Shown piece by piece: positions 22,195-63,683 of a DNA stretch of 64,000 nucleotides; within the stretch, counting starts at the first letter, position 1; the number at the start of each line of letters is the position of its first letter. Made by a program: the position numbers and the translations under genes. This DNA comes from a virus. Below the pieces are notes generated by a model that was given only the letters and a program-made list of their open reading frames with translations, did no database searches and had not been told where the DNA came from. The DNA is taken from the IMG/VR virus record IMGVR_UViG_3300020392_000005, one strand, 5' to 3'.

Positions 22195-25100
22195 TTATCC
22201 TAATACCGCAGGTTGGAATAATGATGAATAATCACTATCATTTTGTTGCTGTATGTAGCTTCCACCATATCCAACGATTAAGTATCTATTATCAAAAGTT
22301 TTTATTTCTCTAAAGTGATATCTGTTACCATCTTGCGAATAATAACCTCTACCTCTTATATCTTCTACTCTTCCGTGTGCAAAGTTCGGCATACGAACCA
22401 TTTGGAAGTAGTAATCATCTGTCTCTTCAATACCGTTGGAAGCGTTTCTATCTCCAACATATTGAGTAGAATATCCTACTGAACAAGTTCCGTAGTTATT
22501 TCTACCTGCCATAAACACGAATCCGTCATATGTTAATAAGTGTACTGAACAATGCCATTGGTTACCATATGCAGATTGACATCCAATATCTTTAATGTTC
22601 ATAACATCTTGCGTTGTAGTTGATGTTGTACCTGTATTAACTTGCCATTTAGGCGATACAGCAGAAGATTGATTAGTTGTGTTACCAAGTCCTAATTCAT
22701 ATGCACCATTGTAACCAGCACATTTGATTTTACCTTCTTGGTCTTTAGTCCAGAAACTTGCGTATCTGCCGTTTCCAGTAAACCACATATTAGTTGCGTG
22801 TGAGTGAGTTCCACTTCCAGGTCCGTTACCTACCTGTGTAAATGTGTTAACATCTGAAGTATTACCCATCATCGCCCAACCGTATTCGTTTCTTCCAGAC
22901 CAGAATATCTTACCTTTTTCAGTTAAGATTGCAACTCTTTGATATGATTCCTGACTATCTACTAGTAATTTTTTAATCTTACCAGGATTAGAAGCACCAT
23001 TGTCAAAGGTTACACCAGTTATTTCAGTTGGTACTGATAAGTTAGTTGTATTACCTTGTGCTAAAACTCCGTATCCATTGTAACCCCAACTATAAAGTTT
23101 TCCGGTTACATCTAAAGCGAAACAGAAACCGTAGCTTCCGCCAGCAGTCCAGAAAGCGTCAATCTTATTACCATTGAAATATGAAGTCTTATTAATTTTT
23201 GTTGGTCTACTTAAATCAGAAGTGTTGTTTTGTCCTAATTGACCATAACCATTGTAACCCCAAGCCCATAGTTCGCCATCTGTATCTAAACCATAGACGC
23301 TATGAGTATTAGTTCCGTTACCATTACCACCCCAATTAGTAATATAAATTCTTTTCATCCTTGTATCTTTTAATGTGTGTGTTGAAGTATTACTTGCTTG
23401 ATATACTTCTTGGTATGTACCACCACATCTTACTGGATATCCTCTGTTTGAAGTAGCAGCGTCACCATTTTGTCCGTGACCTCCGTAACCCCAATGGTAT
23501 ATTTCACCATTATTAAATAGTGCCATACCTGTTTCATATCCAGATAATAGTTGAATTGCTTTTGGTGGTTCTCCGTCAGGAGTTGTATGAATACCAGAAC
23601 CACCGTTATCTGTACTTCTATACCAATCGTTGAATGGGAATGTCATTCCTACTCCAGTTAGTACAGAACCTTGGTTAATTCCGTTTTGACCATTTGAGTT
23701 TGAACCCCAACTTGTAATACCACCACGACCATTAATGAAACACGGCCAGTCAACACATTGACCTTGTTGGAATTGTCCAGGCAATCTGTATAGTGGGTGG
23801 TCATCTCCGATAGGACCACTTGTATTACATAGAGACATACACTCTAAACGGTTACCAGAAAATCTGTTTTGATAACCTCTAACTTTTTTAGCAGTTGAAG
23901 CAACATCAAAGGTTACATTAGCAGAAGAGTAGAATACTTGACCATCTATTCTTAATTGGTCATTAACAGCATTGTTCTCACCACCAAGTTTAGGACCTTC
24001 TTCGTGTCCTTCCCATCTGTTTGAATTTTCTCTATCTATTCCGTCTGTCATTGAAGCTTTTTGGTCAGTCGCTAATTCTATTTGTAATGCACCCCAAGTA
24101 CCGATACTATTAACTCTAAATGTAAAGTTAGGAGCACCACCGCCACCTAAATCAGCGTCAGCGATTGTAATAACTTCGTTTTGTGCATATCCAAGACCAC
24201 CCATTTGACCACCAAGATTTTTCTTGGTTACGGTTACAGAAGATACTGAACCGTCTTCTTCTACGATTAAGTCAAAGGTTGCGTTTGAACCAGCACCTGA
24301 AGTTGCAGTTTGGGTTACATTTCTGTAAATACCAGGTTTTCTTAAATAGTGTGCGTTGCTAAAATTGTCAACCGTTTTAACTGATTGGTAACCTTCAACG
24401 GTTACATTGAACATAGGTGTATTGAATCCACCAGTTCTACCAGCATTTGAGTTCTCAGCAGCTGCGGTAACATTTGTACAATTTACATAAGGATAGAATC
24501 CTTGTTGTCTTGCAGGAGAAGCAGCAGAAATATTTGTGATTGTTTCAACAGCACCATTGTCTACAACTATCTCATCATCAAATTGCATTTCTTCTGATAC
24601 TCTTTCCCAATACTTGTTTCCGTCTGTATCAGCTTCTTGGTCCCAAGGTAAGTATTTACTAGTACCGTCTGTCGTATGTTCTAGTATACAAATATAAGTT
24701 GCTCTTACTTTGTTGATTTGGTTTCCAGAATACTGATTGTTTGTTGAGAAGTCATTATCTAATTCTACATTTACTTTGACAATATCATTAGGATAGTATG
24801 TTAAGTATGAACCACTTTCATTTGTATTGTCGTGTAAACCTCTATACTTAAATGAGCTTCTTACTAGTTTCCAAACTGGTTGGTCGGCAACAACAATTTT
24901 AGGACCCCAATTTGCAGTAGGATTATCATATGAGAAGAGATATAATTCTTTAGGTGTTTCGTTAGTAATTTCTATTCTGATTTCTCTTTTAGTAGCGTTA
25001 TTGTAAGTAGATGTATTAAAGTAATCACCACTTGCAGTACCACCACCAACAGCCTTACCATCTAAAAAGTAGGTTACATCTTGGTGGTAAAGGTTAGTAT

Positions 25101-25455
25101 TTTTGTTAGAGGCACTATTAGCGAAAGCAGGTTTGTTATCATCAAAATCGTTTCCGTCGTGTGATAAGATTAGTGTATCACCAATCATTACTTGCTCTTC
25201 TGCTAATGGCCAAGTTGCTTGACCGTCCCATTTGTAAGCGTCTGAACCTGTACTTGCAGATACAGCTTTCGTCAACCTTACATATCTTCTTTTGTTCTCT
25301 TTAGGAACATCATTTGTGGAATCTGTATTCTTAACGCAGATATAATCAGAATTATTGTACATAACCACATCATCACGGATATAAGTTTCTGTACTCTTCC
25401 AATCACCTCTAAAATTAAAGAACAGATTTCCTATTTTAGTTTTAGTTGTTGCCAT
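22195..25455 (-). CDS. Large tail/receptor-binding-like protein with C-terminal RCC1 repeats
   Basis: N-terminal IGNLFFNFRGDW...Y.RDDVV; WAWGYNGYGQLG and YSWGYNGYGVLA repeats. Confidence 0.75.
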   Translation of the reverse strand: MATTKTKIGNLFFNFRGDWKSTETYIRDDVVMYNNSDYICVKNTDSTNDVPKENKRRYVRLTKAVSASTGSDAYKWDGQATWPLAEEQVMIGDTLILSHDGNDFDDNKPAFANSASNKNTNLYHQDVTYFLDGKAVGGGTASGDYFNTSTYNNATKREIRIEITNETPKELYLFSYDNPTANWGPKIVVADQPVWKLVRSSFKYRGLHDNTNESGSYLTYYPNDIVKVNVELDNDFSTNNQYSGNQINKVRATYICILEHTTDGTSKYLPWDQEADTDGNKYWERVSEEMQFDDEIVVDNGAVETITNISAASPARQQGFYPYVNCTNVTAAAENSNAGRTGGFNTPMFNVTVEGYQSVKTVDNFSNAHYLRKPGIYRNVTQTATSGAGSNATFDLIVEEDGSVSSVTVTKKNLGGQMGGLGYAQNEVITIADADLGGGGAPNFTFRVNSIGTWGALQIELATDQKASMTDGIDRENSNRWEGHEEGPKLGGENNAVNDQLRIDGQVFYSSANVTFDVASTAKKVRGYQNRFSGNRLECMSLCNTSGPIGDDHPLYRLPGQFQQGQCVDWPCFINGRGGITSWGSNSNGQNGINQGSVLTGVGMTFPFNDWYRSTDNGGSGIHTTPDGEPPKAIQLLSGYETGMALFNNGEIYHWGYGGHGQNGDAATSNRGYPVRCGGTYQEVYQASNTSTHTLKDTRMKRIYITNWGGNGNGTNTHSVYGLDTDGELWAWGYNGYGQLGQNNTSDLSRPTKINKTSYFNGNKIDAFWTAGGSYGFCFALDVTGKLYSWGYNGYGVLAQGNTTNLSVPTEITGVTFDNGASNPGKIKKLLVDSQESYQRVAILTEKGKIFWSGRNEYGWAMMGNTSDVNTFTQVGNGPGSGTHSHATNMWFTGNGRYASFWTKDQEGKIKCAGYNGAYELGLGNTTNQSSAVSPKWQVNTGTTSTTTQDVMNIKDIGCQSAYGNQWHCSVHLLTYDGFVFMAGRNNYGTCSVGYSTQYVGDRNASNGIEETDDYYFQMVRMPNFAHGRVEDIRGRGYYSQDGNRYHFREIKTFDNRYLIVGYGGSYIQQQNDSDYSSLFQPAVLG

Positions 25456-29746: not shown

Positions 29747-29763
29747 TATTTATACTATTTATA
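29747..29763 (-). promoter_or_regulatory. Two tandem T4-type late promoters (TATAAATA at 29747-29754 and 29756-29763)
   Basis: Two exact copies one base apart, upstream of the giant tail-protein genes. Confidence 0.7.
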
Positions 29764-32517: not shown

Positions 32518-32525
32518 TATTTATA
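32518..32525 (-). promoter_or_regulatory. T4-type late promoter TATAAATA
   Basis: Exact motif in the intergenic gap. Confidence 0.7.
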
Positions 32526-32906: not shown

Positions 32907-33134
32907 CTATTCTTTTGGTGTATCTTTGGTATCTTCTTTAGGAGCGTTTGGGTCTATTCCCAAGAACTCACAGATTTTCGCATTGTAATATCTGATAAGC
33001 ACTTGAACTTTTTCCATTTCAATCTCCAATCTCGCCTGATTTTGAACAAGTTCCTGTCTTGCGATAACATAGTTTTTAGTCTTGTCATCAAACTTATTCT
33101 CATCATACTCTTTACCATTAATCTTAATTGCCAT
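32907..33134 (-). CDS. Small coiled-coil hypothetical protein
   Basis: IKINGKEYD start followed by a heptad-like helix. Confidence 0.55.
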   Translation of the reverse strand: MAIKINGKEYDENKFDDKTKNYVIARQELVQNQARLEIEMEKVQVLIRYYNAKICEFLGIDPNAPKEDTKDTPKE

Positions 33135-33573
33135 AATTTTCTCCTGTTATAGTATTATTTATATTAATTCCAGTATCGTACTTTATTTCTTTTTCATAAT
33201 ATCCACGAATATCTGGTATCATACCACTATTCTCATCTTTAGGGTATGCTGATATTATCTTGTTATATATGTGTGGTGTTTTATCATACACCTCAAAGTA
33301 ATCGTCATTGCCATATAATAACATTGGGTCATTTAACAACTCATAAAAGTTGTCACCATAATCTCTCTCAATCCACTTCGCATAGCATATCGCTACACAA
33401 TAACTCTTTGCTGGGTATACGAACCTGTCAACTTTTTCGTTCCAATGTCGTATTGCCCAATCTACAATATCGTCTTCTTTCCATATCAAAGATATCTCTT
33501 TGTCTGCTAGAGTATCTTTATGAGTAGTGTTTAGTCTATGGTAGACTTCTTGTTTGAGTTTCCATTCCTTCAT
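33124..33573 (-). CDS. Hypothetical protein, distal end of the radical SAM cluster
   Basis: 149-aa ORF overlapping both neighbours; YPAKSY.VA..YA...NDP.LL.GND.YF. Confidence 0.55.
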   Translation of the reverse strand: MKEWKLKQEVYHRLNTTHKDTLADKEISLIWKEDDIVDWAIRHWNEKVDRFVYPAKSYCVAICYAKWIERDYGDNFYELLNDPMLLYGNDDYFEVYDKTPHIYNKIISAYPKDENSGMIPDIRGYYEKEIKYDTGININNTITGENYGN

Positions 33574-34330
33574 AACTTATATACTCCACATTTTTGCAAT
33601 CGTCCCAAGCGTTGATTTTTAAATTTAAATAATTCTCTCTATTGACTTTGTAAAACTTAATCCAGTTATACCACTTAAATAGTCTTCGCCACTCATATAT
33701 CCACTTATTGATATTATAGTCTGAAATATGAGTATCACTTTTATAGAATTTTTGACCTCTATAAATGTTGTTAAATTGTTTGTCAATACTAAAGAAGTCG
33801 TGTCCTATGAGATAGACTTCTTTTAATTCTGATACTTCTTTACACGCAACATAACCACTTGTCGTTCCTGTACCCCACTCAACTTGTTCGTGTTCTCTAT
33901 AAATGTCTGTCAAGTTTTTTACTTTGTCTTCTGTACACCAACTTAATGATACTTCTGTTTGATTAGTTTCTTTGTCTTTATATCCGTGTACAACAAATTC
34001 TTTAGAACCTTGTCTTTGATTTTCTATTAATAGTCCGTCTCGTCTTATAGTTTTTATATCTCTATGTTCAGGAAACATACCTTGTATCATCATATCAAAA
34101 TTCTGTACAGGTATCGTAACCCAATCTCTAAAATAACAATTTGCAGTATAACAATAACCACTTCTGTATATTTCGTGCATAATAGGATGGTCAGTTGCAA
34201 CTAATATGTCAGGTGCAAAATCTTTATAGAGATTATTACAACCTATTATAACGCCTCTACCTTTGAGAGACTTTAGATTGAAACCTCTTCTACTTCTACC
34301 ATTACCTATACAAAATGCTCTATTAGACAT
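33536..34330 (-). CDS. Glycosyltransferase-like protein (Maf/DUF115 or sialyltransferase-type Rossmann motifs)
   Basis: AFCIGNGRS, IIGCN, PDILVATD, TTSG and VYLIGHD motifs. Confidence 0.55.
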   Translation of the reverse strand: MSNRAFCIGNGRSRRGFNLKSLKGRGVIIGCNNLYKDFAPDILVATDHPIMHEIYRSGYCYTANCYFRDWVTIPVQNFDMMIQGMFPEHRDIKTIRRDGLLIENQRQGSKEFVVHGYKDKETNQTEVSLSWCTEDKVKNLTDIYREHEQVEWGTGTTSGYVACKEVSELKEVYLIGHDFFSIDKQFNNIYRGQKFYKSDTHISDYNINKWIYEWRRLFKWYNWIKFYKVNRENYLNLKINAWDDCKNVEYISYEGMETQTRSLP

Positions 34331-35339
34331 TAATCAATCTCTCTTTACCATATCTAAACTTGTAAGTATCTAATAGATACTTGTAACCATTACAACCATT
34401 TTCTAAATTTTCAACAAATCTATAATGTTCAGTTAAACAGAAACCTTTGTATTCACACTTATTACATATAGGCGATTTATCTATCTTTTGTTTTTCTTCT
34501 TCTGTCCACTTTATATAATCTTCAAAGTTATCTACTTTTCTAAAATACTCTTTATCATCTTTGTCAAAGTCTAATACTGCTAACTCTCCTGAAGGTGTAA
34601 TATATAAGTGGTCATCTGAATATGCGTTATAAGATTTATCTAAACTATCTAATATATTTAATTCATTAACAAAAGTAAAATCTTCTATTCTTTCGTCTGT
34701 ATCATACTTTGTCATAAAGGCAGGATATTGAGCACATAACTCTAAAATATAATCTTCAAATTGTGCGTCTGTTACCGTATAATTGTTTGCCTGATTTTTA
34801 CTATAAGGTTTTACTTCAACACTTTTAAATCTTTTATTTCTATGTTTTAGTTTTCTGAAATTTTCCCAGAAGTGAGCACTACCTACTTCTTTTAATACTT
34901 GTTCATTTGCTAATACAAGAACAGAAAAATCAACAGGCAACTTTGTCATATTCTCAAATACTTTCATATGGTCTTGTCTTGCAGTAAAATCATAACTAAC
35001 ACTTAAATAATAATCAGGATTAAAAAATATAGGATTCATTGTAGACAAGTTAGTATTAATATTAATCTTATCTTTGTAATAAAATCTAATAGTATTAGTA
35101 ATCGCTTCTAATTTATCTTTCTTAATTATACCTATCTCGCCACCATATAAGTCAATATGGTTTATATCTCTATAAGTTTGTATATGTGCAAGTATATCAT
35201 TTAACTTGAAATGGTCTATTGTCTTCGTATCACCTAATTGTTTAGGTGTAAGATAACACCAAGGACATCTAAAATTACAATGATAACTAGGATTGATAGA
35301 TAAATTAATCTTCGGCAATGTCATATTCAAGTTCCTCAA
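34323..35339 (-). CDS. Radical SAM protein with partial SPASM-type C-terminus
   Basis: CNFRCPWC (CX3CX2C), LYGGE, NTNL; C-terminal CNKCEYKGFCLTEH...C. Confidence 0.9.
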   Translation of the reverse strand: MRNLNMTLPKINLSINPSYHCNFRCPWCYLTPKQLGDTKTIDHFKLNDILAHIQTYRDINHIDLYGGEIGIIKKDKLEAITNTIRFYYKDKININTNLSTMNPIFFNPDYYLSVSYDFTARQDHMKVFENMTKLPVDFSVLVLANEQVLKEVGSAHFWENFRKLKHRNKRFKSVEVKPYSKNQANNYTVTDAQFEDYILELCAQYPAFMTKYDTDERIEDFTFVNELNILDSLDKSYNAYSDDHLYITPSGELAVLDFDKDDKEYFRKVDNFEDYIKWTEEEKQKIDKSPICNKCEYKGFCLTEHYRFVENLENGCNGYKYLLDTYKFRYGKERLINV

Positions 35340-35877
35340 TTATATTTAAAATCTTTCTTTTACTATATCTGAATAAAATTAATCTTTTAATATGTGACCA
35401 TATATTATTATCTTTAAATAAACCGAAATATAAAAAACTATACGCAGTATGATTTCTCATAAACAATCTATTCAATTCATTATATTCTGCTTCTCTCTCC
35501 ATAGGTTGTTCAACTCTAACACCTATTTGACCATTAACATTTGCCACTTGTTCTTTTACTTTAAAAAATATACCAGGTACATCTTTTAGTTTTTGTATTA
35601 CATCAAAAATTCTTTCTATTCTATTCTTGCCTGGTACAGCAATCATAACATACCAGTTTAGATAGTGTTTGTTTCCGTAATGACCTTCACAACTTGATAG
35701 AGGTAGATAACCTTTTCTAACAAGTGCTTTACAATGTTGTAATACACCAGGTTCTACTTCGTTATCATACTCTTTGTCAAACGGACTTACTGATAAGGCA
35801 TAGTAACCATTTGAGTAATCTAAATCTTGTTTTTCTGAGGCGTGTATTCTGCCATTAGGAAATAATTTATTCTTCAT
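35305..35877 (-). CDS. Hypothetical protein with an SSCEGH motif (reminiscent of the TYW3 N-terminus)
   Basis: EVEPGV...ALVRKGYLPLSSCEGH. Confidence 0.45.
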   Translation of the reverse strand: MKNKLFPNGRIHASEKQDLDYSNGYYALSVSPFDKEYDNEVEPGVLQHCKALVRKGYLPLSSCEGHYGNKHYLNWYVMIAVPGKNRIERIFDVIQKLKDVPGIFFKVKEQVANVNGQIGVRVEQPMEREAEYNELNRLFMRNHTAYSFLYFGLFKDNNIWSHIKRLILFRYSKRKILNIIEELEYDIAED

Positions 35878-36392
35878 ATATTAAAATCAAAACACCCGAC
35901 TATTCTATCTTCTTTACCAGGTACACTTTTCCAATCACTTACTTTGTGTTGCCAAGTCTCTTTGTGATTTAAGATAATCATATCACCTTTACCTGGGTGC
36001 AACATACAAGACAATTCGTTAGTCTCTTTATTTCTAACTGATATTGAACCGCCTTGTTCTCTATTACTAGAATTTGTAAAGTACATTAATATAGCAAGGT
36101 TCGCTCCTTCTTTCAAATCATTGTGCCAATTAGTTGATGGATTATCAACACCATTGACTATTTCAGGTTGACCGTATAGATTATACTTACCTGATATTAG
36201 TTTAATATATTTATCACCCAAATAATTATGGGTTATTTTAAGTGCGTTGTCTACTTCTTTCGTGTGAATACAAACTTTATATTCTCCTTGTTGTTTAAAA
36301 GGTATCTCAACACCTTCAAAAAATCTAAATGCAACAGGATCCTTAAAAGGATATACACCATTAATTAATACATTTTCTATACCTTGTATCAT
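35874..36392 (-). CDS. 2OG-Fe(II) oxygenase
   Basis: WHND (HxD), ILMYF, GGSI, PGKGDMIIL, WQHKV, RIVG. Confidence 0.85.
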   Translation of the reverse strand: MIQGIENVLINGVYPFKDPVAFRFFEGVEIPFKQQGEYKVCIHTKEVDNALKITHNYLGDKYIKLISGKYNLYGQPEIVNGVDNPSTNWHNDLKEGANLAILMYFTNSSNREQGGSISVRNKETNELSCMLHPGKGDMIILNHKETWQHKVSDWKSVPGKEDRIVGCFDFNI

Positions 36393-36835
36393 CTTCTAAC
36401 AAACCTCCACTTAATTGCAAGTCTAGTCTCATCACCATAATAAGGATTTGCTCTATGCCTTAAATGTGATGGCATTATAAACAATGCGTTCTTCTCAAAT
36501 CTATGTTTCTTCTTACCTTCTATCTGTAATTCTCCACCTTTTGTACTATCACCTTTTAAATATAGTATTGCAGTAATCTCATTATTCTTATCGCTATCTG
36601 TATGATAACCTATTATATTCTTATTCTCGTCTTTAGTGTTTGTAGAGATAATATATCTGACAATCAAAGGACCTAAATCAGGATAATTTAAACGACATAT
36701 TGTATCTGTCCATTCAAAATTATCATCTAACTTCGTGTGTATATTCTTTTCATATAACGGCAGGTCTAACTTATTAATTGCGTTTAATAAAGTATTACCT
36801 TCTGTCATAGTTAAGACATTACGCTTGATTAACAT
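36389..36835 (-). CDS. 2OG-Fe(II) oxygenase (prolyl-hydroxylase-like)
   Basis: YHTD, ITAILYL, GGELQI, PSHLRHRA, RLAI. Confidence 0.85.
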   Translation of the reverse strand: MLIKRNVLTMTEGNTLLNAINKLDLPLYEKNIHTKLDDNFEWTDTICRLNYPDLGPLIVRYIISTNTKDENKNIIGYHTDSDKNNEITAILYLKGDSTKGGELQIEGKKKHRFEKNALFIMPSHLRHRANPYYGDETRLAIKWRFVRR

Positions 36836-37925
36836 TTTTTATCTCATTTTCATAAGGCGTCATTTTGATATAATGCAAACCATTTGCATTTAATATATCT
36901 TCACCATTTCTTTTCATCTTTTGACAATGTGCCTCTACAACTCCTTTTTCTTTGTAATCTTTTATTGTTTTTCTACACCCATTACAAATACTAAACATAG
37001 GACAACCATAACAACTCTTTTTCATAGTTGTTAATTTTAAATCATCTTGCAAAGGTGTAAAAAACTCACCTTGCATTTCTCTTTCAAAATCTATCTCTTT
37101 ATCTTTATCATCACCGAAAGCACCACAACTATAATAGTCGCCATCTGGTTGTAAACATCTTATACCCTCATCACACTTTCTACTTAACGGACAACTCGTA
37201 TGTTCAGTCTTAATTGTTGTCATCATTTGTTTTGTATTGAACTCCCAAGGTGAAAGTCCCATACGCCAGATATCAACATATATCTTATATATGTCTGATA
37301 ATAAAAATGGATTTTTCTGTTCACCACTTGCCATTGCATAGTTTAGTTTACACTCAACACCTGTTTTCTCATAACGCCAGAAGTTATGTAAAGTGCCTTC
37401 AGGTTCATTATTGTTTGACATCTGTTTTGCAAGTCTAACATTTTTGATTGCGTTGTGTACATTTTCTTCTGTAATAACTGATATAAAGTCAGGTCTATAA
37501 CCACAATATTCTAACATTGCGTCTGAACACTTCCAAAAGTCTTCTTCTGTAAATTCTGTAAAGTCACCTTTCAATCTACCACCACCATATTGAAAAGAAG
37601 TTGTGATACCTACTCTATCATTATTAAATAAGTCAACCCAACGACCTGGTTTCTTATAGAAAGGCCATAAGTTTGTTGTAAGTGCAAGTGAAGTATCGTA
37701 ACCTTTATTATCTAACCATTCAATAATCTTCCAGTAGTAATCAGGTGCCATCATCAATGGGTCACCACCATTTACGATAATAGTTTTTGTTTCAGGAAAC
37801 CTTTCTAAAAAACGAAATATCTGGTCGTGTTTTAACCAGTTTTTCTTTTCATTAGTCAATTGTGTACTTGAACAAAAAGTACATTTGAAATTACACAATT
37901 CAGTAGGTTTTATTATTAGGTCCAT
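36819..37925 (-). CDS. Radical SAM/SPASM protein
   Basis: IIKPTELCNFKCTFC, NGGDPL, TTNL; C..C...GDYYSC and CYGCPMFSICNGC...C. Confidence 0.93.
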   Translation of the reverse strand: MDLIIKPTELCNFKCTFCSSTQLTNEKKNWLKHDQIFRFLERFPETKTIIVNGGDPLMMAPDYYWKIIEWLDNKGYDTSLALTTNLWPFYKKPGRWVDLFNNDRVGITTSFQYGGGRLKGDFTEFTEEDFWKCSDAMLEYCGYRPDFISVITEENVHNAIKNVRLAKQMSNNNEPEGTLHNFWRYEKTGVECKLNYAMASGEQKNPFLLSDIYKIYVDIWRMGLSPWEFNTKQMMTTIKTEHTSCPLSRKCDEGIRCLQPDGDYYSCGAFGDDKDKEIDFEREMQGEFFTPLQDDLKLTTMKKSCYGCPMFSICNGCRKTIKDYKEKGVVEAHCQKMKRNGEDILNANGLHYIKMTPYENEIKNVNQA

Positions 37926-38536
37926 AATCCTATCCAGTTTAATCCTGTTTGACTTTCTTTGTTTCTAATCCAGTAATCACCACTATCATCTTTCTTAAAA
38001 CCAAATTGTGTCATAATTTGATAGTGATATGGTTCTTTTTGTGCAGACATCTGGTTCATTGTTAGATGTACATAATCAAAATATGTTCCACTAGGACATA
38101 TAATATCTTTATCTTTAAATAAGTTTATTGTTTCACACCACATTGTTCTTAATAATCTTCTTCTATATGTTGCGTCTTTTCTTTTCATATATCCTGCATA
38201 CTTCATAGACCCACATATGATATGGTCTTTGTAAATATGAAACATACCTACACCTTTAATAAATGTATTAGGCGTTTTAGGTTGTACCCATTGTTTCTCG
38301 CCTATTGTTTGTTGTGCAACATTATATAATTCTATGTCTTCTTCTTTCGTACCTAACCACAAAAGAAAGTGTGCTTGTCTTTCACACAATCTAGGCATAT
38401 AAGGTTTCTGTACAGGAAATCTATCTAGTTGTACTTCTATATTCTCTGGTAAATTGAGATTATTAGGTTGCAACAAGATTTCGTTGTACTCGTACATCTT
38501 CAATATATCTGTGCGTAAGTTTGTATACACACTCAT
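37916..38536 (-). CDS. Hypothetical protein in the radical SAM cluster
   Basis: ORF filling the gap between two rSAM genes; true start may be the internal Met (MYEYNE). Confidence 0.55.
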   Translation of the reverse strand: MSVYTNLRTDILKMYEYNEILLQPNNLNLPENIEVQLDRFPVQKPYMPRLCERQAHFLLWLGTKEEDIELYNVAQQTIGEKQWVQPKTPNTFIKGVGMFHIYKDHIICGSMKYAGYMKRKDATYRRRLLRTMWCETINLFKDKDIICPSGTYFDYVHLTMNQMSAQKEPYHYQIMTQFGFKKDDSGDYWIRNKESQTGLNWIGLWT

Positions 38537-39515
38537 TGAGTTCCTCCTTATATCTGTAATCGTGGTTCATAAAACAACCTAGTGTACATCTATCTAAAAA
38601 TTCACAACTAGCACAATTATATTTTTCTAAAAAACTATTTTCTATTCTACTATTATCTTTTCTTTTTATTGGCGACTTATATTGACTTAATGATTTTTCA
38701 TCTTGTACTAGATTACCACATTGACATAAAGTACCATCTGCTAATATAAGTTTTGATACTCTACAACTTGCAAAGTTTTTCTTATTGAAAATCCAATCTC
38801 TAACAGGATGTACATTAGGATATTTGTCTATACAATGTTTGAAAAATTTTAATAGTAATTCATCGCTAGGCATATTGTATTTTGCGTGTTCATCTGGCAT
38901 ATAATAATCAAAGTAGATATACTTACCACTCTTATAGAGATAGTCAAAGTATTCATCGCCTTGTTCTAAATAATATGTGATATTAGGTTTTGTAAGTAGA
39001 CAAGAAAAACAGGTTACTTCATCACCCCAATATTCTACATTTGATTTAAATATCTCAAAATCTTTTTTATTAAATCTACCTCGTGGGTCATAACTAGTTG
39101 TTAATCTAGTTTCAATACCTTCTTGCCTAGACCAAGTTATTAAATCTAGTATCTGTTCATTACCTTGAGGTGTGGTTACTAAATTAGATACCCAATTAAT
39201 TACACATTTCTTATTGTAATGGTCACATATCTTTTGTATACCTTTTACAAAAAGTTTATAACCTTCATTTAATTTCTTTGTGTAGATTGCAGGTGCAAAG
39301 ACTTCGCCACCCATAACATTAAAGGTAACTTTTTGCATTAACTCTTTTGATATAAACTTCTCTACTGACGGAAGTTTATCTAATACATTTTCAGTACCGA
39401 TAGTGTCTTCGTGGTTTTGCCAACAGAAAGCACAACGCAAATTACAAAATTCAAATAAATGAATAGTGTACTCTTGCTCTGGGTCTCTTTTTGGGTCTAA
39501 TAAAAACTCTCGCAT
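38463..39515 (-). CDS. Radical SAM/SPASM protein
   Basis: CNLRCAFC, MGGE, VSNL, SYDP.GRF; C...DGTLCQC and CASCEFLDRCTLGC...C. Confidence 0.93.
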   Translation of the reverse strand: MREFLLDPKRDPEQEYTIHLFEFCNLRCAFCWQNHEDTIGTENVLDKLPSVEKFISKELMQKVTFNVMGGEVFAPAIYTKKLNEGYKLFVKGIQKICDHYNKKCVINWVSNLVTTPQGNEQILDLITWSRQEGIETRLTTSYDPRGRFNKKDFEIFKSNVEYWGDEVTCFSCLLTKPNITYYLEQGDEYFDYLYKSGKYIYFDYYMPDEHAKYNMPSDELLLKFFKHCIDKYPNVHPVRDWIFNKKNFASCRVSKLILADGTLCQCGNLVQDEKSLSQYKSPIKRKDNSRIENSFLEKYNCASCEFLDRCTLGCFMNHDYRYKEELNECVYKLTHRYIEDVRVQRNLVAT

Positions 39516-39523
39516 TTAAACTC

Positions 39524-40636
39524 CTACGAGTTTGCGAATAGTCTATACTTTCCTAAAGTGTCTGTATCGTCTGATTTTTTTAATGAGAATAGATATTGTA
39601 AAAAAGAATAGTTAATATTACCTATATCAAATCTCGGTATGTACGATAGACTAGATGGACTATTCACCGTCTCGGTTATGATTGTGTCAAAATCTGATTT
39701 AGAAAGAGTTGACTTAACTGCCTTGTCTAAATGGTTCATAAAGTAATCAGGACTAGGTGAATTTTGAAAGTCGTATAGGTCTTTGACTAATTCTTTTAGT
39801 GCAGTTTGTTTTTCACTTGACAAATTATCAATATTCATTATGTTGACAGCACCATTGTTTGCAGTAGGTTTCTCTACAAATACTTCACTATCAGCGAAAG
39901 GTGCTAAAGGTGTAATGCCTTCAAAGACATTATCAGCATTTAAGTTGACATCATCAGCAGTATAACCTAATGCTTCTTGTTGATTAGTATTTAACAGATT
40001 GAGAGCTGCACCCTCTCTAGCGTCTGTAAATACTTCTTTGTAAAATCTTTTTAAGAATTTTAAATATGTGTCTAATAATTTATCTTCGTGTGTATCGGCA
40101 CCTGCAAAGTATTCGCCTAATAATAATTCTATTGATAAATTTAAATCCCACTCTTTGATAGTATCTAAATCTAAAGCACCTTGTACTCTAAAGTAACCTT
40201 TAACATCTCCTAGACCAGAATTTAATTGTGTCAAATCTAAAGTATGTGTAGGTTGCAATTGTGTATTTGCAATAATCTTTTCGTGGTGTAAATAGATATC
40301 TACATATTTTTGTATTGCGTCTTCGTCAGCGAAAGGCAACATAGTCTTTAACCATATAGTTACCAACTCTAAAAATGCCTGACTATCACAATATATAATA
40401 ATCTTACCTAGAGAATTACTTTTTAATCTTACATCATTAAAGAAACCTATCATACCATTAAACTTCGTTTTCATTTCGTTAACGCTATGAGTATGATTAA
40501 TTAATGTACCACGATAAGTTGTTTGTAGCTCTTGGTGCATTGCATTGCCTTTATCAGCAGATATAACATATCTGTTAGTATGACAATCAATACTATCGTC
40601 AAAAGTCATATAAACTTTATTAAACAGGTGTAGCAT
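39524..40636 (-). CDS. Hypothetical protein (370 aa) in the radical SAM cluster
   Basis: Long ORF overlapping its upstream neighbour; no motif recognised. Confidence 0.6.
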   Translation of the reverse strand: MLHLFNKVYMTFDDSIDCHTNRYVISADKGNAMHQELQTTYRGTLINHTHSVNEMKTKFNGMIGFFNDVRLKSNSLGKIIIYCDSQAFLELVTIWLKTMLPFADEDAIQKYVDIYLHHEKIIANTQLQPTHTLDLTQLNSGLGDVKGYFRVQGALDLDTIKEWDLNLSIELLLGEYFAGADTHEDKLLDTYLKFLKRFYKEVFTDAREGAALNLLNTNQQEALGYTADDVNLNADNVFEGITPLAPFADSEVFVEKPTANNGAVNIMNIDNLSSEKQTALKELVKDLYDFQNSPSPDYFMNHLDKAVKSTLSKSDFDTIITETVNSPSSLSYIPRFDIGNINYSFLQYLFSLKKSDDTDTLGKYRLFANS

Positions 40637-41312
40637 TTAGTACCTCTAAATCTTTTGTTCTTGCTTCTTTGTATTTCTTACTATCAAATTTACCTTCGGC
40701 AATCGCCCAAGTCATTAGAAACATAGGGTTTTCTTTAACACCCCAAAAGTCTAATAGACATTTGCCTTTAAACATATATTCTTTAAAGTATTTAGTATAG
40801 TTTTTAACAATTTTTTCTTCTGGTTTATTATAGTAGAAATAAAAATCTTTGTGTTTTAATAGACTAACAAAGTTGATACCTTTAGTATCTTCTGTTTCGT
40901 CTTTAGGATATAGGTCAACATATTCTTTAAATGCACCTTCTCCTACGATAGACATATTGTATAGTGGTAAACTTTCTAATTTACTTGCCCACTTATCAAT
41001 AGTCTCTAAATTTTCTGATATAAATTTTGCGTTCTTAATTTCTTTTACTAGACCTTTATGTTCAAATAGAACAATCATAGCAGCCTTTTCTAGTAATGGT
41101 ATGTTTACTAACATAGAACTCTCAAAATATTCTTTTAGTAATTCATCATCATAATTAGATAGGTCGCAAGGTATATCTAAATTACTTAAATATGTTAAGA
41201 ACTGAGCACCTTTTAATGTACTCTTTTCGTAATCAATCATATAACTTTGTGTTTTATCTTCAAAGTATTTTTTTAAATCTTTCAATTCAATAGGTACAAT
41301 AGTTTCAATCAT
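40620..41312 (-). CDS. Hypothetical protein (about 230 aa), translationally coupled to the CHxS-tail protein
   Basis: ATG at 41312 (MIETIVPIEL) overlaps the upstream TAA (TAATG); FLTYLSNLDIPC. Confidence 0.6.
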   Translation of the reverse strand: MIETIVPIELKDLKKYFEDKTQSYMIDYEKSTLKGAQFLTYLSNLDIPCDLSNYDDELLKEYFESSMLVNIPLLEKAAMIVLFEHKGLVKEIKNAKFISENLETIDKWASKLESLPLYNMSIVGEGAFKEYVDLYPKDETEDTKGINFVSLLKHKDFYFYYNKPEEKIVKNYTKYFKEYMFKGKCLLDFWGVKENPMFLMTWAIAEGKFDSKKYKEARTKDLEVLNATPV

Positions 41313-42085
41313 TATCTTCTTCCTCTGGATCCGTGGCACGAACCGTGGCACGAACTATGACAAATTGTTTTTGATAGTGTGTAAGTATTTCCTCTTTCAA
41401 CACCATAAGCACTTGCAAGAGAACTTAAAAAGTTTTCTAAATTACTATCGTCAATTACTTGACCTGCTTGTAAATTACTAGGTTGTGATGGGTTTAAGGT
41501 TACTCTTTGACTAGTTGTTAAGTGTGCGATTTCTGTTTGATTATATTGAGTACCTGCACCTGTCATTGATACAAACGCATTAGTACTCTTAATATTAGTA
41601 TAGTTGTTCATTTCAGCTTTTAAAACACTATAAATTGTATTCGCTTGAATTAATTGTGCTGAACTACCTAGATTATTACCATTAATAGAAATAGTAACCG
41701 CTGATACTTCTGTCATTGTAGATACTGAACCAGTCGCACCTGAATTACTACCTGTTAATATATCGTTTTGAACAAAGTTAGTTTGTCCTGAACCTGGTAC
41801 TACATTTCTTACTTTTAATACATTGTTTGAATAACTAACAACGGTACCTACGGTTCCTGAAATAGAACCTGTAACCGTTTCGTTAACACTAAAATTACCT
41901 GTTGCATTTACTAGGTTCAATTGCATACCATCAACTACTCCTCCGAAGTCAGACGCAGAAAAAGCACTATGTCCAGGTAAGTTATCTGTACCCCAAACAA
42001 TATCTTTATCAGCCACATCTGTTACCACTTCTTTAAATCTATCTACAATGTTTTGAGCAGTAATCGGATTCGTTAAATTTACCAT
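41312..42085 (-). CDS. Virion-like protein with C-terminal (Cys-His-Xaa-Ser)3-RGRR tail; candidate substrate of the radical SAM cluster
   Basis: Ends TICHSSCHGSCHGSRGRR; contains two F...E/D.(V/L)TG..SG..G.V modules also found in baseplate proteins of this window. Confidence 0.7.
   Translation of the reverse strand: MVNLTNPITAQNIVDRFKEVVTDVADKDIVWGTDNLPGHSAFSASDFGGVVDGMQLNLVNATGNFSVNETVTGSISGTVGTVVSYSNNVLKVRNVVPGSGQTNFVQNDILTGSNSGATGSVSTMTEVSAVTISINGNNLGSSAQLIQANTIYSVLKAEMNNYTNIKSTNAFVSMTGAGTQYNQTEIAHLTTSQRVTLNPSQPSNLQAGQVIDDSNLENFLSSLASAYGVERGNTYTLSKTICHSSCHGSCHGSRGRR
41331..41354 (+). repeat. 12-bp direct tandem repeat (CCGTGGCACGAA x2) encoding the SCHG repeats
   Basis: Directly visible; GC-rich relative to its surroundings. 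Confidence 0.85.
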
Positions 42086-43113
42086 ATCGCCTCACTTTTC
42101 TTTTGTGCCAGTTGTTTCATTAGAGATTTAGGGGCACCACATACATCGCCTTGCCATCCTAGTTGGTGACAATCGCCACCACAATATTTAAATACATCAC
42201 ATTCCCAACATTTTGGGTTTCTTGCTACTTCGCAAGCAATATTATTCAATCTCTTTGGATTATTTATAAGGTCTATCATAGGGTCATCCAGAGAACCGAA
42301 GTTAAACTCGGGACTTGCGTTAGGACAACCGCCTATTGTGCCTGTTGCGTTGAGTGTAAATAGTTTTTGTTCGCAATCACGGCAGAAAGTACCTTGTTTT
42401 GTGTTACCTGACTTAAATTTTGAGTAAATAGTTTCTAAAAATTCATTTTCAAACCAATCTCTTGCATTATATTGCTCTGATTGTTCGTGCATTTTCAAAA
42501 ACCACTTGTCTTGTTCAATATTTGTTGGGAAAATTTCAGGATGTAAGTTAGCATTGCCGTTTCCAGTCAATCTTTCTAGTGCCATTTCAGAAACACCCAA
42601 GTCTTTTACCCATTGTAGTAGTTGTATGGGTTCAATATTGACCGTATCTTTGGTTACTGATATAAAAAGTTTGATTGTTATGCCTTCAGACAATAAAGTT
42701 TCAACATTTTTACGCCATAAGTTAGATTGTTTCTCATTTGCGAAACGAATATTAGGATCCCAACTAGTTCCACATCTATTTCCTAGTGGACCTTTCATAA
42801 AATCTATATGTTCTTGTTTTAATTTGAATACGAGATTAGAAGTAACCCCATAAGATTGATGTTCCCATAGACCTTTTGTTCTATCGTACACATATTGCAT
42901 TTCAGATACAGGAACTAAAAAAGGTTCGCCGCCGTGAAACTCTAAATGTGCGATATCGTGTTTATGATAATTGAATTTTCTGAAATTGTGAAACCAATTT
43001 ATGATTTTATTTGTATCCCAATATACTTTAGGACCGTTCTTACCTGAAGTGAAACAATGTTTACAATTTAGATTGCAGGTTTCGGTTGTTTTAAGATAAA
43101 ACATCCAATTCAT
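42079..43113 (-). CDS. Radical SAM/SPASM peptide-maturase-like protein
   Basis: LKTTETCNLNCKHC, FHGGEP, TSNL, SWDP.IRF; CRDC...GTIGGC and CWECDVFKYCGGDC...C; start at MNWMFY (TAATG overlap). Confidence 0.93.
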   Translation of the reverse strand: MNWMFYLKTTETCNLNCKHCFTSGKNGPKVYWDTNKIINWFHNFRKFNYHKHDIAHLEFHGGEPFLVPVSEMQYVYDRTKGLWEHQSYGVTSNLVFKLKQEHIDFMKGPLGNRCGTSWDPNIRFANEKQSNLWRKNVETLLSEGITIKLFISVTKDTVNIEPIQLLQWVKDLGVSEMALERLTGNGNANLHPEIFPTNIEQDKWFLKMHEQSEQYNARDWFENEFLETIYSKFKSGNTKQGTFCRDCEQKLFTLNATGTIGGCPNASPEFNFGSLDDPMIDLINNPKRLNNIACEVARNPKCWECDVFKYCGGDCHQLGWQGDVCGAPKSLMKQLAQKKSEAIW

Positions 43114-43595
43114 TAGACAACTCCGATACTTAACCCCCAAGTATCTGCTTCGTTATCTACATAATGATATTGACCTTCCTTGATATACACACCTTCATCA
43201 GCGTATGCTATCTTATTCTCTCCTTCAACATTTACTTTCTTCTTGCCTTTAACAACATACAAGTAAACATCTAGGTCGTCTTTATGTGATTTAAAACTAA
43301 CACCTGGTTTTTGATTTACAAATAAATGTATATTACTTCTTTTCTTTCCAGTAATATTATGTACAACTTCGTCAACACACTCCGTTATCCATTTAGTTTC
43401 TTCTAAACCTTCCACCTTAATGGTTTTAAATCTCTCATACTCTCTCAACCATTCACCATAGGTCATATGTTCTTTGACCTCTCTATCTCTACCTTCTTCG
43501 TCAATGTAGAAAATCTGTCTTGCGTTATATCTATCGTGGGATTGAATTTCCTCTTTCAATCGGGAAACCCATAATTGCGTTTGTTCATCTGCCAT
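43113..43595 (-). CDS. Cupin/JmjC-like oxygenase
   Basis: SFKSHKD (HxD), V...VKGKK, YIKEGQYHYV, LSIG. Confidence 0.75.
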   Translation of the reverse strand: MADEQTQLWVSRLKEEIQSHDRYNARQIFYIDEEGRDREVKEHMTYGEWLREYERFKTIKVEGLEETKWITECVDEVVHNITGKKRSNIHLFVNQKPGVSFKSHKDDLDVYLYVVKGKKKVNVEGENKIAYADEGVYIKEGQYHYVDNEADTWGLSIGVV

Positions 43596-54398: not shown

Positions 54399-54406
54399 TA
54401 TTTATA
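54399..54406 (-). promoter_or_regulatory. T4-type late promoter TATAAATA
   Basis: Exact motif in the intergenic gap. Confidence 0.72.
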
Positions 54407-59267: not shown

Positions 59268-59275
59268 TATTTATA
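59268..59275 (-). promoter_or_regulatory. T4-type late promoter TATAAATA
   Basis: Exact motif just upstream of gp25. Confidence 0.75.
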
Positions 59276-63543: not shown

Positions 63544-63606
63544 TTAATTGATAACACTTGTAATTAATTGTAATGCAAGTGCTAATATTGTAAGTGCTGT
63601 CAACAT
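63544..63606 (-). CDS. 20-aa hydrophobic peptide coupled to pqqA
   Basis: TAATG overlap; MLTALTILALALQLITSVIN. Confidence 0.35.
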   Translation of the reverse strand: MLTALTILALALQLITSVIN

Positions 63607-63683
63607 TATCTTAACGCCGTTGAGTATGAGTTAATCTCTAAACCAACACACACAATATCAATAACAGGTACTGACCATTGCAT
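63606..63683 (-). CDS. pqqA: Pyrroloquinoline quinone precursor peptide PqqA (not in ORF track)
   Basis: AGGAG RBS; MQWSVPVIDIVCVGLEINSYSTALR has M-x-W-x-x-P, CVGxE and the invariant E-x-x-x-Y core of alphaproteobacterial-type PqqA. Confidence 0.85.
   Translation of the reverse strand: MQWSVPVIDIVCVGLEINSYSTALR

Follow-up and report, generated by a model that had tools for sequence, protein, structure and literature searches.

Most of what is known about radical S-adenosylmethionine (rSAM) peptide chemistry comes from secreted natural products and, to our knowledge, only a few folded-protein substrates of such chemistry had been described until 2026. The viral DNA considered here, a stretch of 64,000 nucleotides from IMG/VR record IMGVR_UViG_3300020392_000005 (hereafter, the window), belongs to an uncultured T4-like myovirus with all of its genes read from the minus strand. 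At positions 33124-43595, it contains a cassette of 14 minus-strand open reading frames (ORFs), in which four rSAM enzymes (rSAM-A to -D) and several oxygenases are encoded around a protein of 257 amino acids (aa), referred to here as the tail protein (W03), which terminates in ICHSSCHGSCHGSRGRR. The cassette is probably dedicated to the post-translational maturation of a virion protein, and we infer from the sequences that the C-terminal Cys-His tail of this protein is the substrate of the cassette enzymes.

Several described systems resemble the cassette in part. In the closest of these, the HXS antiphage system (HxsA/B/C/D), a protein with HxS repeats is matured by rSAM enzymes; the covalent change in HxsA (+8 Da) maps to one SHRSS motif, and the product acts at the cell envelope (Li et al., Nat Commun 2026, PMC13128918). 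As would be the case for the cassette, several rSAM enzymes and small helpers mature a folded protein with repeated His-Xaa-Ser triads. However, HXS is a bacterial defence, whereas the cassette centres on a component of the phage virion. HxsA has a peptidoglycan-binding domain, N-terminal cleavage, export and five HxS repeats with no Cys, whereas the tail protein carries three C-H-x-S units at its extreme C-terminus, followed by R-x-R-R, and is accompanied by four rSAM enzymes and oxygenases. The cassette rSAM enzymes score 30.4 bits against a cut-off of 370 with the HxsB model (TIGR03978) and 30.5 against 267.9 with the HxsC model (TIGR03977), and no NCBIfam match to the HxsA or HxsD models was obtained among W03, W04, W05, W07, W11 and W13. 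An earlier note on this DNA, made from the sequence alone, knew of no characterized system of this kind; that statement has been overtaken by the publication of HXS in 2026 (PMC13128918).

Individual enzymes offer further comparisons. The likeness to the anaerobic sulfatase-maturating enzyme (anSME; PDB 4K36-4K39), which oxidizes Cys, lies in a compact size of 350-370 aa, the lack of an N-terminal recognition domain, two auxiliary clusters and an action on Cys or Ser of a full protein. The sulfatase motif of anSME is C/S-x-P/A-x-R, and the last repeat and first Arg of the tail read C-H-x-S-R, with Gly in 88, Ser in 44, Thr in 24, Asn in 9 and Ala in 5 of 181 tails at the variable position; the spacing and the Arg fit, whereas Pro is absent and the P/A position is filled only by the Ala of those five tails, so that the resemblance to the sulfatase motif is a loose one. 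On the other hand, no sulfatase is involved, and the TIGR03942 score is 33.4 against 349.45 bits. The triceptide synthases HaaB, HtkB, YhhB and ChlB link His-C2 to the C-beta two residues on, in HAA, HTK and HNR. Similarly, each C-H-x-S unit of the tail contains an H-x-S triad, the three triads are in invariant register, and ChlB is among the profile matches of the cassette enzymes. Triceptide precursors are short leader-core peptides, whereas the substrate here would be a folded protein of 125-360 aa with an invariant Cys before each triad, and the scores for cyclophane synthase models fall short (YhhB, 29 against 445 bits; AmcB, 24.9 against 425; GrrM/OscB, 21 against 310; XyeB, 17.3 against 450). 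PapB (CX3D repeats) and CteB (SCIFF) are rSAM/SPASM enzymes that make thioethers from Cys repeated at fixed spacing; by contrast, the cassette tail offers no acidic acceptor, the rSAM enzymes have no RRE, and the product would stay in a virion protein. PapB is the top NCBIfam match of rSAM-A, at 39.1 against 340 bits, and the SCIFF maturase model gives 23.6 against 425. Finally, the JmjC-type ribosomal protein hydroxylases MINA53, NO66 and YcfD act on His or Arg of folded proteins; both residues are plentiful in the tail. The cassette cupin has the HxD...H iron triad, and its profile reaches MINA53; unlike these enzymes, however, it comprises only 160 aa, and generic cupin_2 proteins score higher. 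Thus, placement against the HxsB/HxsC, SCIFF and triceptide families, as proposed in the earlier note, did not assign the rSAM enzymes to any of them, all equivalog cut-offs being missed. The cassette would seem to work like an rSAM protein-maturation system without belonging to a described one.

The tail protein and its gene neighbourhood

The gene for the tail protein occupies 41312-42085 on the minus strand and encodes, as the earlier note had stated, 257 residues ending in the Cys-His sequence given above. Its 16 tail codons, CHSSCHGSCHGSRGRR (41315-41362, minus strand), contain a 12-bp tandem duplication, and the tryptic tail peptide is TICHSSCHGSCHGSR. A degenerate DNA pattern for (C-H-x-x)3-R-x-R-R-stop was searched in IMG/VR, and a relaxed version of it was used to collect a protein set. 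Among the matches listed, the pattern occurs in at least 119 viral contigs and 142 ORFs terminate in the motif; since we estimate the chance expectation at ~1e-13 per position, chance is excluded. All 181 distinct complete proteins collected with the relaxed pattern terminate exactly in (CHxx)3-R-x-R-R, where position 4 of the repeat is Ser in 147-161 of the 181 tails and otherwise mostly Asn or Ala. The codons for the Cys, His and Ser residues of the tail vary synonymously across homologues, including TCN versus AGY for Ser, indicating that selection acts on the protein. The bodies of the homologues drop to 20-40% identity while the tail stays invariant. A tail not conserved in homologues, which the earlier note had named as an argument against its proposal, was therefore not what was found in these 181 proteins.

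The main family of bodies has 117 members of 140-295 aa. A second comprises 40 members of ~127 aa, which occur as tandem pairs, and 10 members are of a Bdellovibrionota type; a few bodies are singletons. In loci with the short form, including L007, L032, L041, L060 and L082, a tandem gene pair is followed by p20767, a cassette protein described below, and the rSAM genes are rearranged or located on the other side. Some homologues carry four C-H-x-x units, not three (L039:8105-8878, L235:864-1433 and L243:156-764); the number of repeats varies, whereas the R-x-R-R end does not. An AlphaFold2 model of the window protein, built with 102 homologues, assigns the body a predicted local distance difference test (pLDDT) score of 91; the last 16 residues, at ~60, are exposed and protrude as a short helix. 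In this model, residues 52-126 form a small beta-barrel inserted in a core of ~190 aa. Fold searches related this barrel to modules of structural proteins from phage baseplates and cyanophages (Z 7.5 for the baseplate of Klebsiella phage KP1, and many BFVD matches) and gave no clear solved match for the rest of the body.

Among the 119 loci listed, rSAM-A lies directly upstream of the tail gene in 87 and p20767 directly downstream in 96, and most of the remaining loci are truncated contigs. When synteny is compared with profiles derived from the window and from four cultured phages, one order recurs: cupin, rSAM-A, tail protein, p20767, W05, rSAM-B, (W07), rSAM-C, (2-oxoglutarate [2OG] oxygenase), rSAM-D and p149. 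In the reverse direction, among loci fetched through rSAM-C alone, the tail motif is present in 53 of the 55 that have enough upstream DNA. In the 39 fully covered rSAM-C loci, rSAM-A to -D and p20767 are always present (39/39), the cupin and p149 in 38, and the tail gene in 37. The co-occurrence and synteny that the earlier note had asked for thus hold both forward, in at least 119 viral contigs, and in reverse, in 37 of 39 full loci; the finding of these rSAM enzymes in genomes without the CHxS protein, which it regarded as contrary evidence, is confined in this comparison to exceptions such as the contig L189, which is weighed below.

In the window, the earlier description of 14 consecutive coupled minus-strand genes between two blocks of tail genes proved accurate. 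Twelve of the 13 junctions are overlapping, the sole gap being 8 nt (39515/39524), and PHROG profiles identify baseplate wedge, fibre and fibre-assembly genes on both flanks. The G+C content is ~0.29-0.32 inside 34-42 kb and ~0.35-0.39 in the flanks. In transcription order, the genes encode the 160-aa cupin, rSAM-A, the 257-aa tail protein, p20767, W05 (370 aa), rSAM-B, W07 (206 aa), rSAM-C, two 2OG-Fe(II) oxygenases, W11 (190 aa), rSAM-D, W13 (264 aa) and p149 (149 aa). The start of the tail-protein gene is overlapped by the stop of rSAM-A and preceded by a GAGG ribosome-binding site, and its stop shares TAATG with an ATG of p20767.

This arrangement bears on a different explanation of the tail, namely that it is a metal- or iron-sulphur (Fe-S)-binding motif of a baseplate or fibre protein and that the enzymes act on other fibre proteins or on a component of the host envelope. 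Spaced four residues apart, the three Cys and three His are well suited as metal ligands, the modelled short helix would place like residues on one face, and trimeric phage spikes and fibres, e.g., T4 gp37 and P2 gpV, bind iron via repeated His motifs. However, a metal-binding motif leaves unexplained both the fixed order of four rSAM genes around the tail gene in T4-like phages, phiKZ-like phages and Bdellovibrionota and the translational coupling of rSAM-A to the tail gene, and as a complete account it is unlikely. Metal binding and modification of the tail are not mutually exclusive.

Cultured carriers and virion proteomics

A megablast search of the whole cassette against cultured phages gave zero matches, and tblastn of the 257-aa protein gave none. 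What the cultured-phage homologues have in common with this protein is limited to the short tail and a diverged body, and they were identified through rSAM-A and inspection of the gene that follows it. At the protein level, rSAM-A and rSAM-C each match the same 15 cultured-phage records. The carriers include RSL2, RSF1, RsoM3USA and the FLC4 phages of Ralstonia, SURPRISE13, FLC6 and FLC8 of Burkholderia, Agrobacterium phage Atu_ph07, Sinorhizobium phage Phosso and Pseudomonas phage pPa_SNUABM_DT01; among these, RSL2, RSF1, SURPRISE13, Atu_ph07, Phosso and DT01 are jumbo phages. In all four cassettes read (SURPRISE13, Atu_ph07, Phosso and DT01), the gene after rSAM-A has the same tail, and the cassette is located beside baseplate, spike or virion-protein genes. 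Papers on the cultured carriers list the cassette genes only as accessory or unknown, and full-text literature searches found no paper describing the cassette, which is widespread but unstudied. Inside the SURPRISE13 cassette, gp77 and gp78 (L001:15421-16598) are annotated as dihydrofolate reductases; a BLAST comparison found no counterpart of either in the window cassette.

Proteomic data exist for one of these carriers. Purified virions of Atu_ph07 contain gp170, identified by 8 unique peptides with 35% coverage (PMC6102473, Supplementary Table S5), and this protein is the tail-protein homologue: its listed mass of 31.89 kDa equals the mass computed here, and it has the same tail. By contrast, the virion list contains neither the cupin (gp172), the annotated rSAM enzymes (gp171, gp168 and gp165) nor p20767 (gp169) (PMC6102473). 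The earlier suggestion that the substrate is a virion-type protein is thereby strengthened, since the homologue is found in virions and the cassette enzymes are not listed there. In the gel, gp170 was present from slice 1 to slice 9 and peaked in slice 1, at the top (PMC6102473). Such migration far above its mass in a non-reducing gel also fits Cys-held oligomers, as the metal-motif explanation would allow.

The same data bear on the idea that the tail protein is a sacrificial precursor, whose residues are cross-linked and then cut off as a cofactor or metallophore, as in the conversion of PqqA to PQQ (pyrroloquinoline quinone) or of MftA to mycofactocin. The core would be located at the extreme C-terminus, as in MftA, rSAM/SPASM enzymes are used as in PqqE and MftC, and the window contains a PqqA-like ORF of 25 aa at 63606-63683, some 20 kb away. 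On the other hand, no peptidase was recognized in the conserved core by Pfam and NCBIfam scans, and the NCBIfam matches listed for the four rSAM enzymes include the mycofactocin model at only 20 bits and do not include PqqE. Furthermore, the body is a conserved, confidently folded domain with a virion-type module, and its homologue is covered to 35% in the virion. A precursor role is thus very unlikely.

Enzymes, possible chemistry and copies in predatory bacteria

The four rSAM enzymes, all encoded on the minus strand, are rSAM-A (353 aa; 42079-43140), rSAM-B (350 aa; 38463-39515; PHROG 1802), rSAM-C (368 aa; 36819-37925) and rSAM-D (338 aa; 34323-35339), and each matches Pfam Radical_SAM. 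In alignments of 91-121 relatives of each paralogue, the CX3CX2C motif (C22/C26/C29, C24/C28/C31, C11/C15/C18 and C21/C25/C28 of rSAM-A to -D, respectively) is kept at 98-100%. Because this motif begins as early as residues 11-24, no N-terminal RRE (leader-recognition) domain can be accommodated. A SPASM arrangement of 7-8 Cys including CX2CX5CX2-3C is kept in rSAM-A (eight conserved C-terminal Cys, with CX2CX5CX3C), rSAM-B (seven) and rSAM-C (eight), whereas rSAM-D keeps a single C-terminal motif of 4 Cys (C292/C295/C301/C316), which suggests a single auxiliary cluster. With the SPASM model TIGR04085, rSAM-A scores 28.9 bits, above the 27-bit cut-off, and rSAM-B and -C score below it, at 21-23 bits. 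The four rSAM proteins announced by the earlier note are therefore borne out by their conserved Cys motifs, with full SPASM sets in three. Identity to jumbo-phage homologues is 40-50% for rSAM-A, 31-35% for rSAM-B, 53-62% for rSAM-C and 38-43% for rSAM-D; rSAM-C is the most conserved component of the cassette.

Single-sequence phmmer searches of the PDB with rSAM-A and rSAM-C found nothing. With family profiles, anSME is the top full-length match of known structure (E 4e-9 for rSAM-A and 1e-7 for rSAM-C), followed by ChlB, CteB, MoaA (N-terminal part only), YydG, SkfB and SuiB. In NCBIfam, the rSAM enzymes match many peptide-maturase models weakly, at 17-39 bits against cut-offs of 300-650; these maturases are their best matches, and all lie far below the cut-off. 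The profile matches support a grouping with protein and peptide maturases rather than with nucleotide or cofactor enzymes, and the latter grouping, which would have spoken against the earlier proposal, was not observed, anSME, ChlB and CteB ranking at the top and MoaA being weaker and partial. Phages do use rSAM enzymes for base modification, and weak partial matches of the N-terminal core to MoaA, viperin and TYW1 models could be taken to mean that the cassette enzymes modify nucleic acid, nucleotides or lipids and that the neighbourhood of the tail protein is an accident of the late region. However, these matches cover only the shared SAM-binding core, whereas the full-length matches are protein maturases, and the two-way co-occurrence extends across unrelated phages and to bacterial chromosomes without a phage late region. 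This explanation is extremely unlikely.

The cassette also encodes three oxygenases. The first gene (43113-43595, minus strand) encodes the 160-aa cupin-fold iron oxygenase W01, which matches Pfam Cupin_2 at 30.3 bits and has an HxD...H triad (H104, D106 and H144) that is invariant in 96 relatives. Generic cupins (Cupin_2) score best with its family profile, MINA53 is reached at E 7e-6 over ~100 positions, and NO66 and JMJD5 are weaker. Of the former annotation as cupin/JmjC, the cupin part stands, with its triad, while Pfam gives Cupin_2 and lists no JmjC match. The two 2OG-Fe(II) oxygenases of the earlier note are also recovered. One, of 148 aa (36389-36835, minus strand), matches 2OG-FeII_Oxy_3 at 30 bits and is variable, being present in 10 of the 39 full cassettes; the other, of 172 aa (35874-36392, minus strand), scores 26.8 bits, just under the 27-bit cut-off, and is frequent (30/39).

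Maturation of the tail before assembly is the simplest reading, because a core of eight genes surrounds an invariant 16-residue tail and because the protein bearing it is found in the virion and the enzymes are not. In the model that we prefer, the 257-aa protein would fold and leave its last 16 residues exposed, and the four compact rSAM enzymes, three with two auxiliary Fe-S clusters and one with a single cluster, would act on them in the infected cell. The HxD...H cupin oxygenase and the variable 2OG oxygenases would probably act on the tail as well, and p20767, W05 and p149 would be non-virion helpers, possibly for recognition, scaffolding or chaperoning. The finished protein would then enter the tail or baseplate region of the particle while the enzymes stay behind. 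As for the chemistry, our guesses by analogy, in order of preference, would be cyclophanes joining His-C2 to Ser-C-beta within each of the three H-x-S triads, thioethers formed by the three Cys, anSME-like oxidation of Cys to formylglycine, and hydroxylation of His or Arg by the cupin. The tolerance of Ser, Asn and Ala at position 4 of the repeat fits chemistry at C-beta, as would be expected if only C-beta matters. The product may form a stiff tip resistant to proteases, with possible metal-binding or reactive properties, that serves at the host envelope.

Several observations weigh against maturation of the tail. In L189, a 149-kb viral contig and one of the two exceptions among the 39 loci, rSAM-A runs straight into p20767 (L189:2269-4132) and no tail-protein gene occurs across the 21 kb examined; the proposed substrate may have been either lost or relocated. 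The scores fall far short of the cut-offs of all named maturase families. No RRE, PqqD domain or protease was recognized in the cassette by Pfam and NCBIfam scans, which leaves recognition of the substrate unexplained. In addition, Cys and His are classic metal ligands, and metal binding alone could conserve the tail. Finally, the high position of gp170 in the gel may be due to disulfides rather than enzymatic cross-links, because the loading buffer contained no reductant (PMC6102473).

The tail pattern was also searched in one genome per prokaryote species, which yielded 47 contigs, ~39 of them genuine, and 27 of the latter are recorded as Bdellovibrionota. Most of the cassette is present on three Mb-scale Bdellovibrionota contigs. 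A prophage origin was considered for these copies and rejected: Pfam scans of neighbouring genes turned up housekeeping functions (an SMC protein, a DinG-like helicase, serine dehydratase, YchF and an Mrp/NUBPL Fe-S carrier), so that the copies are not obviously prophages. The Mrp/NUBPL-type ATPase lies two genes from the Halobacteriovoraceae cassette (G002, L256:7646-8800), where it may supply the Fe-S clusters of the cassette or may be a coincidence. By eye, the N-termini of the predator proteins have no obvious signal peptide. Fibre-like proteins occur near the predator cassettes. One of them bears a Peptidase_S74 intramolecular chaperone domain; another, of 2355 aa and combining RCC1 and Big_2 domains, is encoded inside the Bacteriovoracaceae cassette (G001 contig 2, L253:11866-18933). 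In the window, a 1086-aa protein with RCC1-type repeats is encoded among the phage fibre genes (22195-25455, minus strand); the RCC1 proteins of the two locations may represent a shared adhesin type.

Large phages and Bdellovibrio-like predators must both breach the Gram-negative envelope. It is tempting to speculate, although we regard it as doubtful, that they share an rSAM-built "warhead," in which the cross-linked tip of an attack protein, possibly metal-binding or aldehyde-bearing, is joined covalently or very tightly to the particle and is needed for penetration, DNA delivery or the evasion of envelope-level defences such as HXS. If maturation of the tail is confirmed, viruses would finish a structural protein of their own particle by a four-enzyme radical pathway, a kit also present in the chromosomes of predatory bacteria. 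The 16-residue substrate, which is very small, invariant and easy to assay, would give access to new enzyme chemistry, and virion modifications would gain a new class, which proteomics and cryo-EM (electron cryomicroscopy) would otherwise misinterpret. The reading is directly testable, as the carriers Atu_ph07, RSL2, RSF1, SURPRISE13, FLC6, DT01 and Phosso are in culture.

Accessory genes and promoter-like sites

The helper p20767 (W04; 40620-41351, minus strand) comprises 243 aa when translated from a GTG, or 230 aa if the TAATG-coupled ATG (41312) is its start, and matches PHROG 20767 at E 5e-57. Its AlphaFold2 model has a pLDDT of 93, with no solved fold above Z 4.3 and no lead from the protein atlas; its resemblances to partial rSAM barrels and TIM barrels were short and within noise. 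The core protein closing the cassette, p149 (W14; 33124-33573, minus strand), is 32-39% identical to its homologues in Phosso, SURPRISE13 and DT01. Its profile has no match in the PDB, and an atlas lead to Arr-type ADP-ribosyltransferases was rejected, the profile missing all PDB entries of that family at E 10.

The remaining accessory proteins differ in their distribution over the 39 full cassettes, and an NCBIfam scan that covered them as well as W03 and W04 returned no family. W05 (39524-40636, minus strand) is frequent (33/39) and matches nothing in Pfam, NCBIfam or PHROG. W07 (37916-38536, minus strand) is variable (17/39) and has no Pfam or NCBIfam family. The SSCEGH protein of the earlier note exists as W11 (35305-35877, minus strand), without a family match, yet it is present in only 12 of the 39. 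The lineage-specific W13 (33536-34330, minus strand; 7/39) had been called glycosyltransferase-like, which no Pfam or NCBIfam match supports. By eye, its N-terminus (IGNGRS...GCNNLY) recalls sugar transferases of the GT42/Maf type, a likeness that we presume from the letters and that the same models do not support.

The cassette had previously been described as free of internal promoters, but that is not safe, because a T4 late-promoter-like octamer, TATAAATA, occurs within the rSAM-A gene (42261-42268, minus strand), and the tail-protein gene starts 176 nt downstream of it. The window contains 13 copies, against a chance expectation of ~10 for both strands together. All 13 are on the coding (minus) strand, mostly intergenic and just upstream of genes, e.g., at 29747-29763, 32518-32525, 54399-54406 and 59268-59275; two lie inside cassette genes, the one in rSAM-A and another at 33156-33163. 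This distribution is consistent with T4-type late promoters. Given the uniform orientation of the copies, the putative promoter inside rSAM-A may provide the structural gene with an additional late start. Outside the cassette, the 25-aa ORF at 63606-63683 (minus strand) encodes MQWSVPVIDIVCVGLEINSYSTALR, which resembles a PqqA precursor in having E-x-x-x-Y and a conserved W..P.

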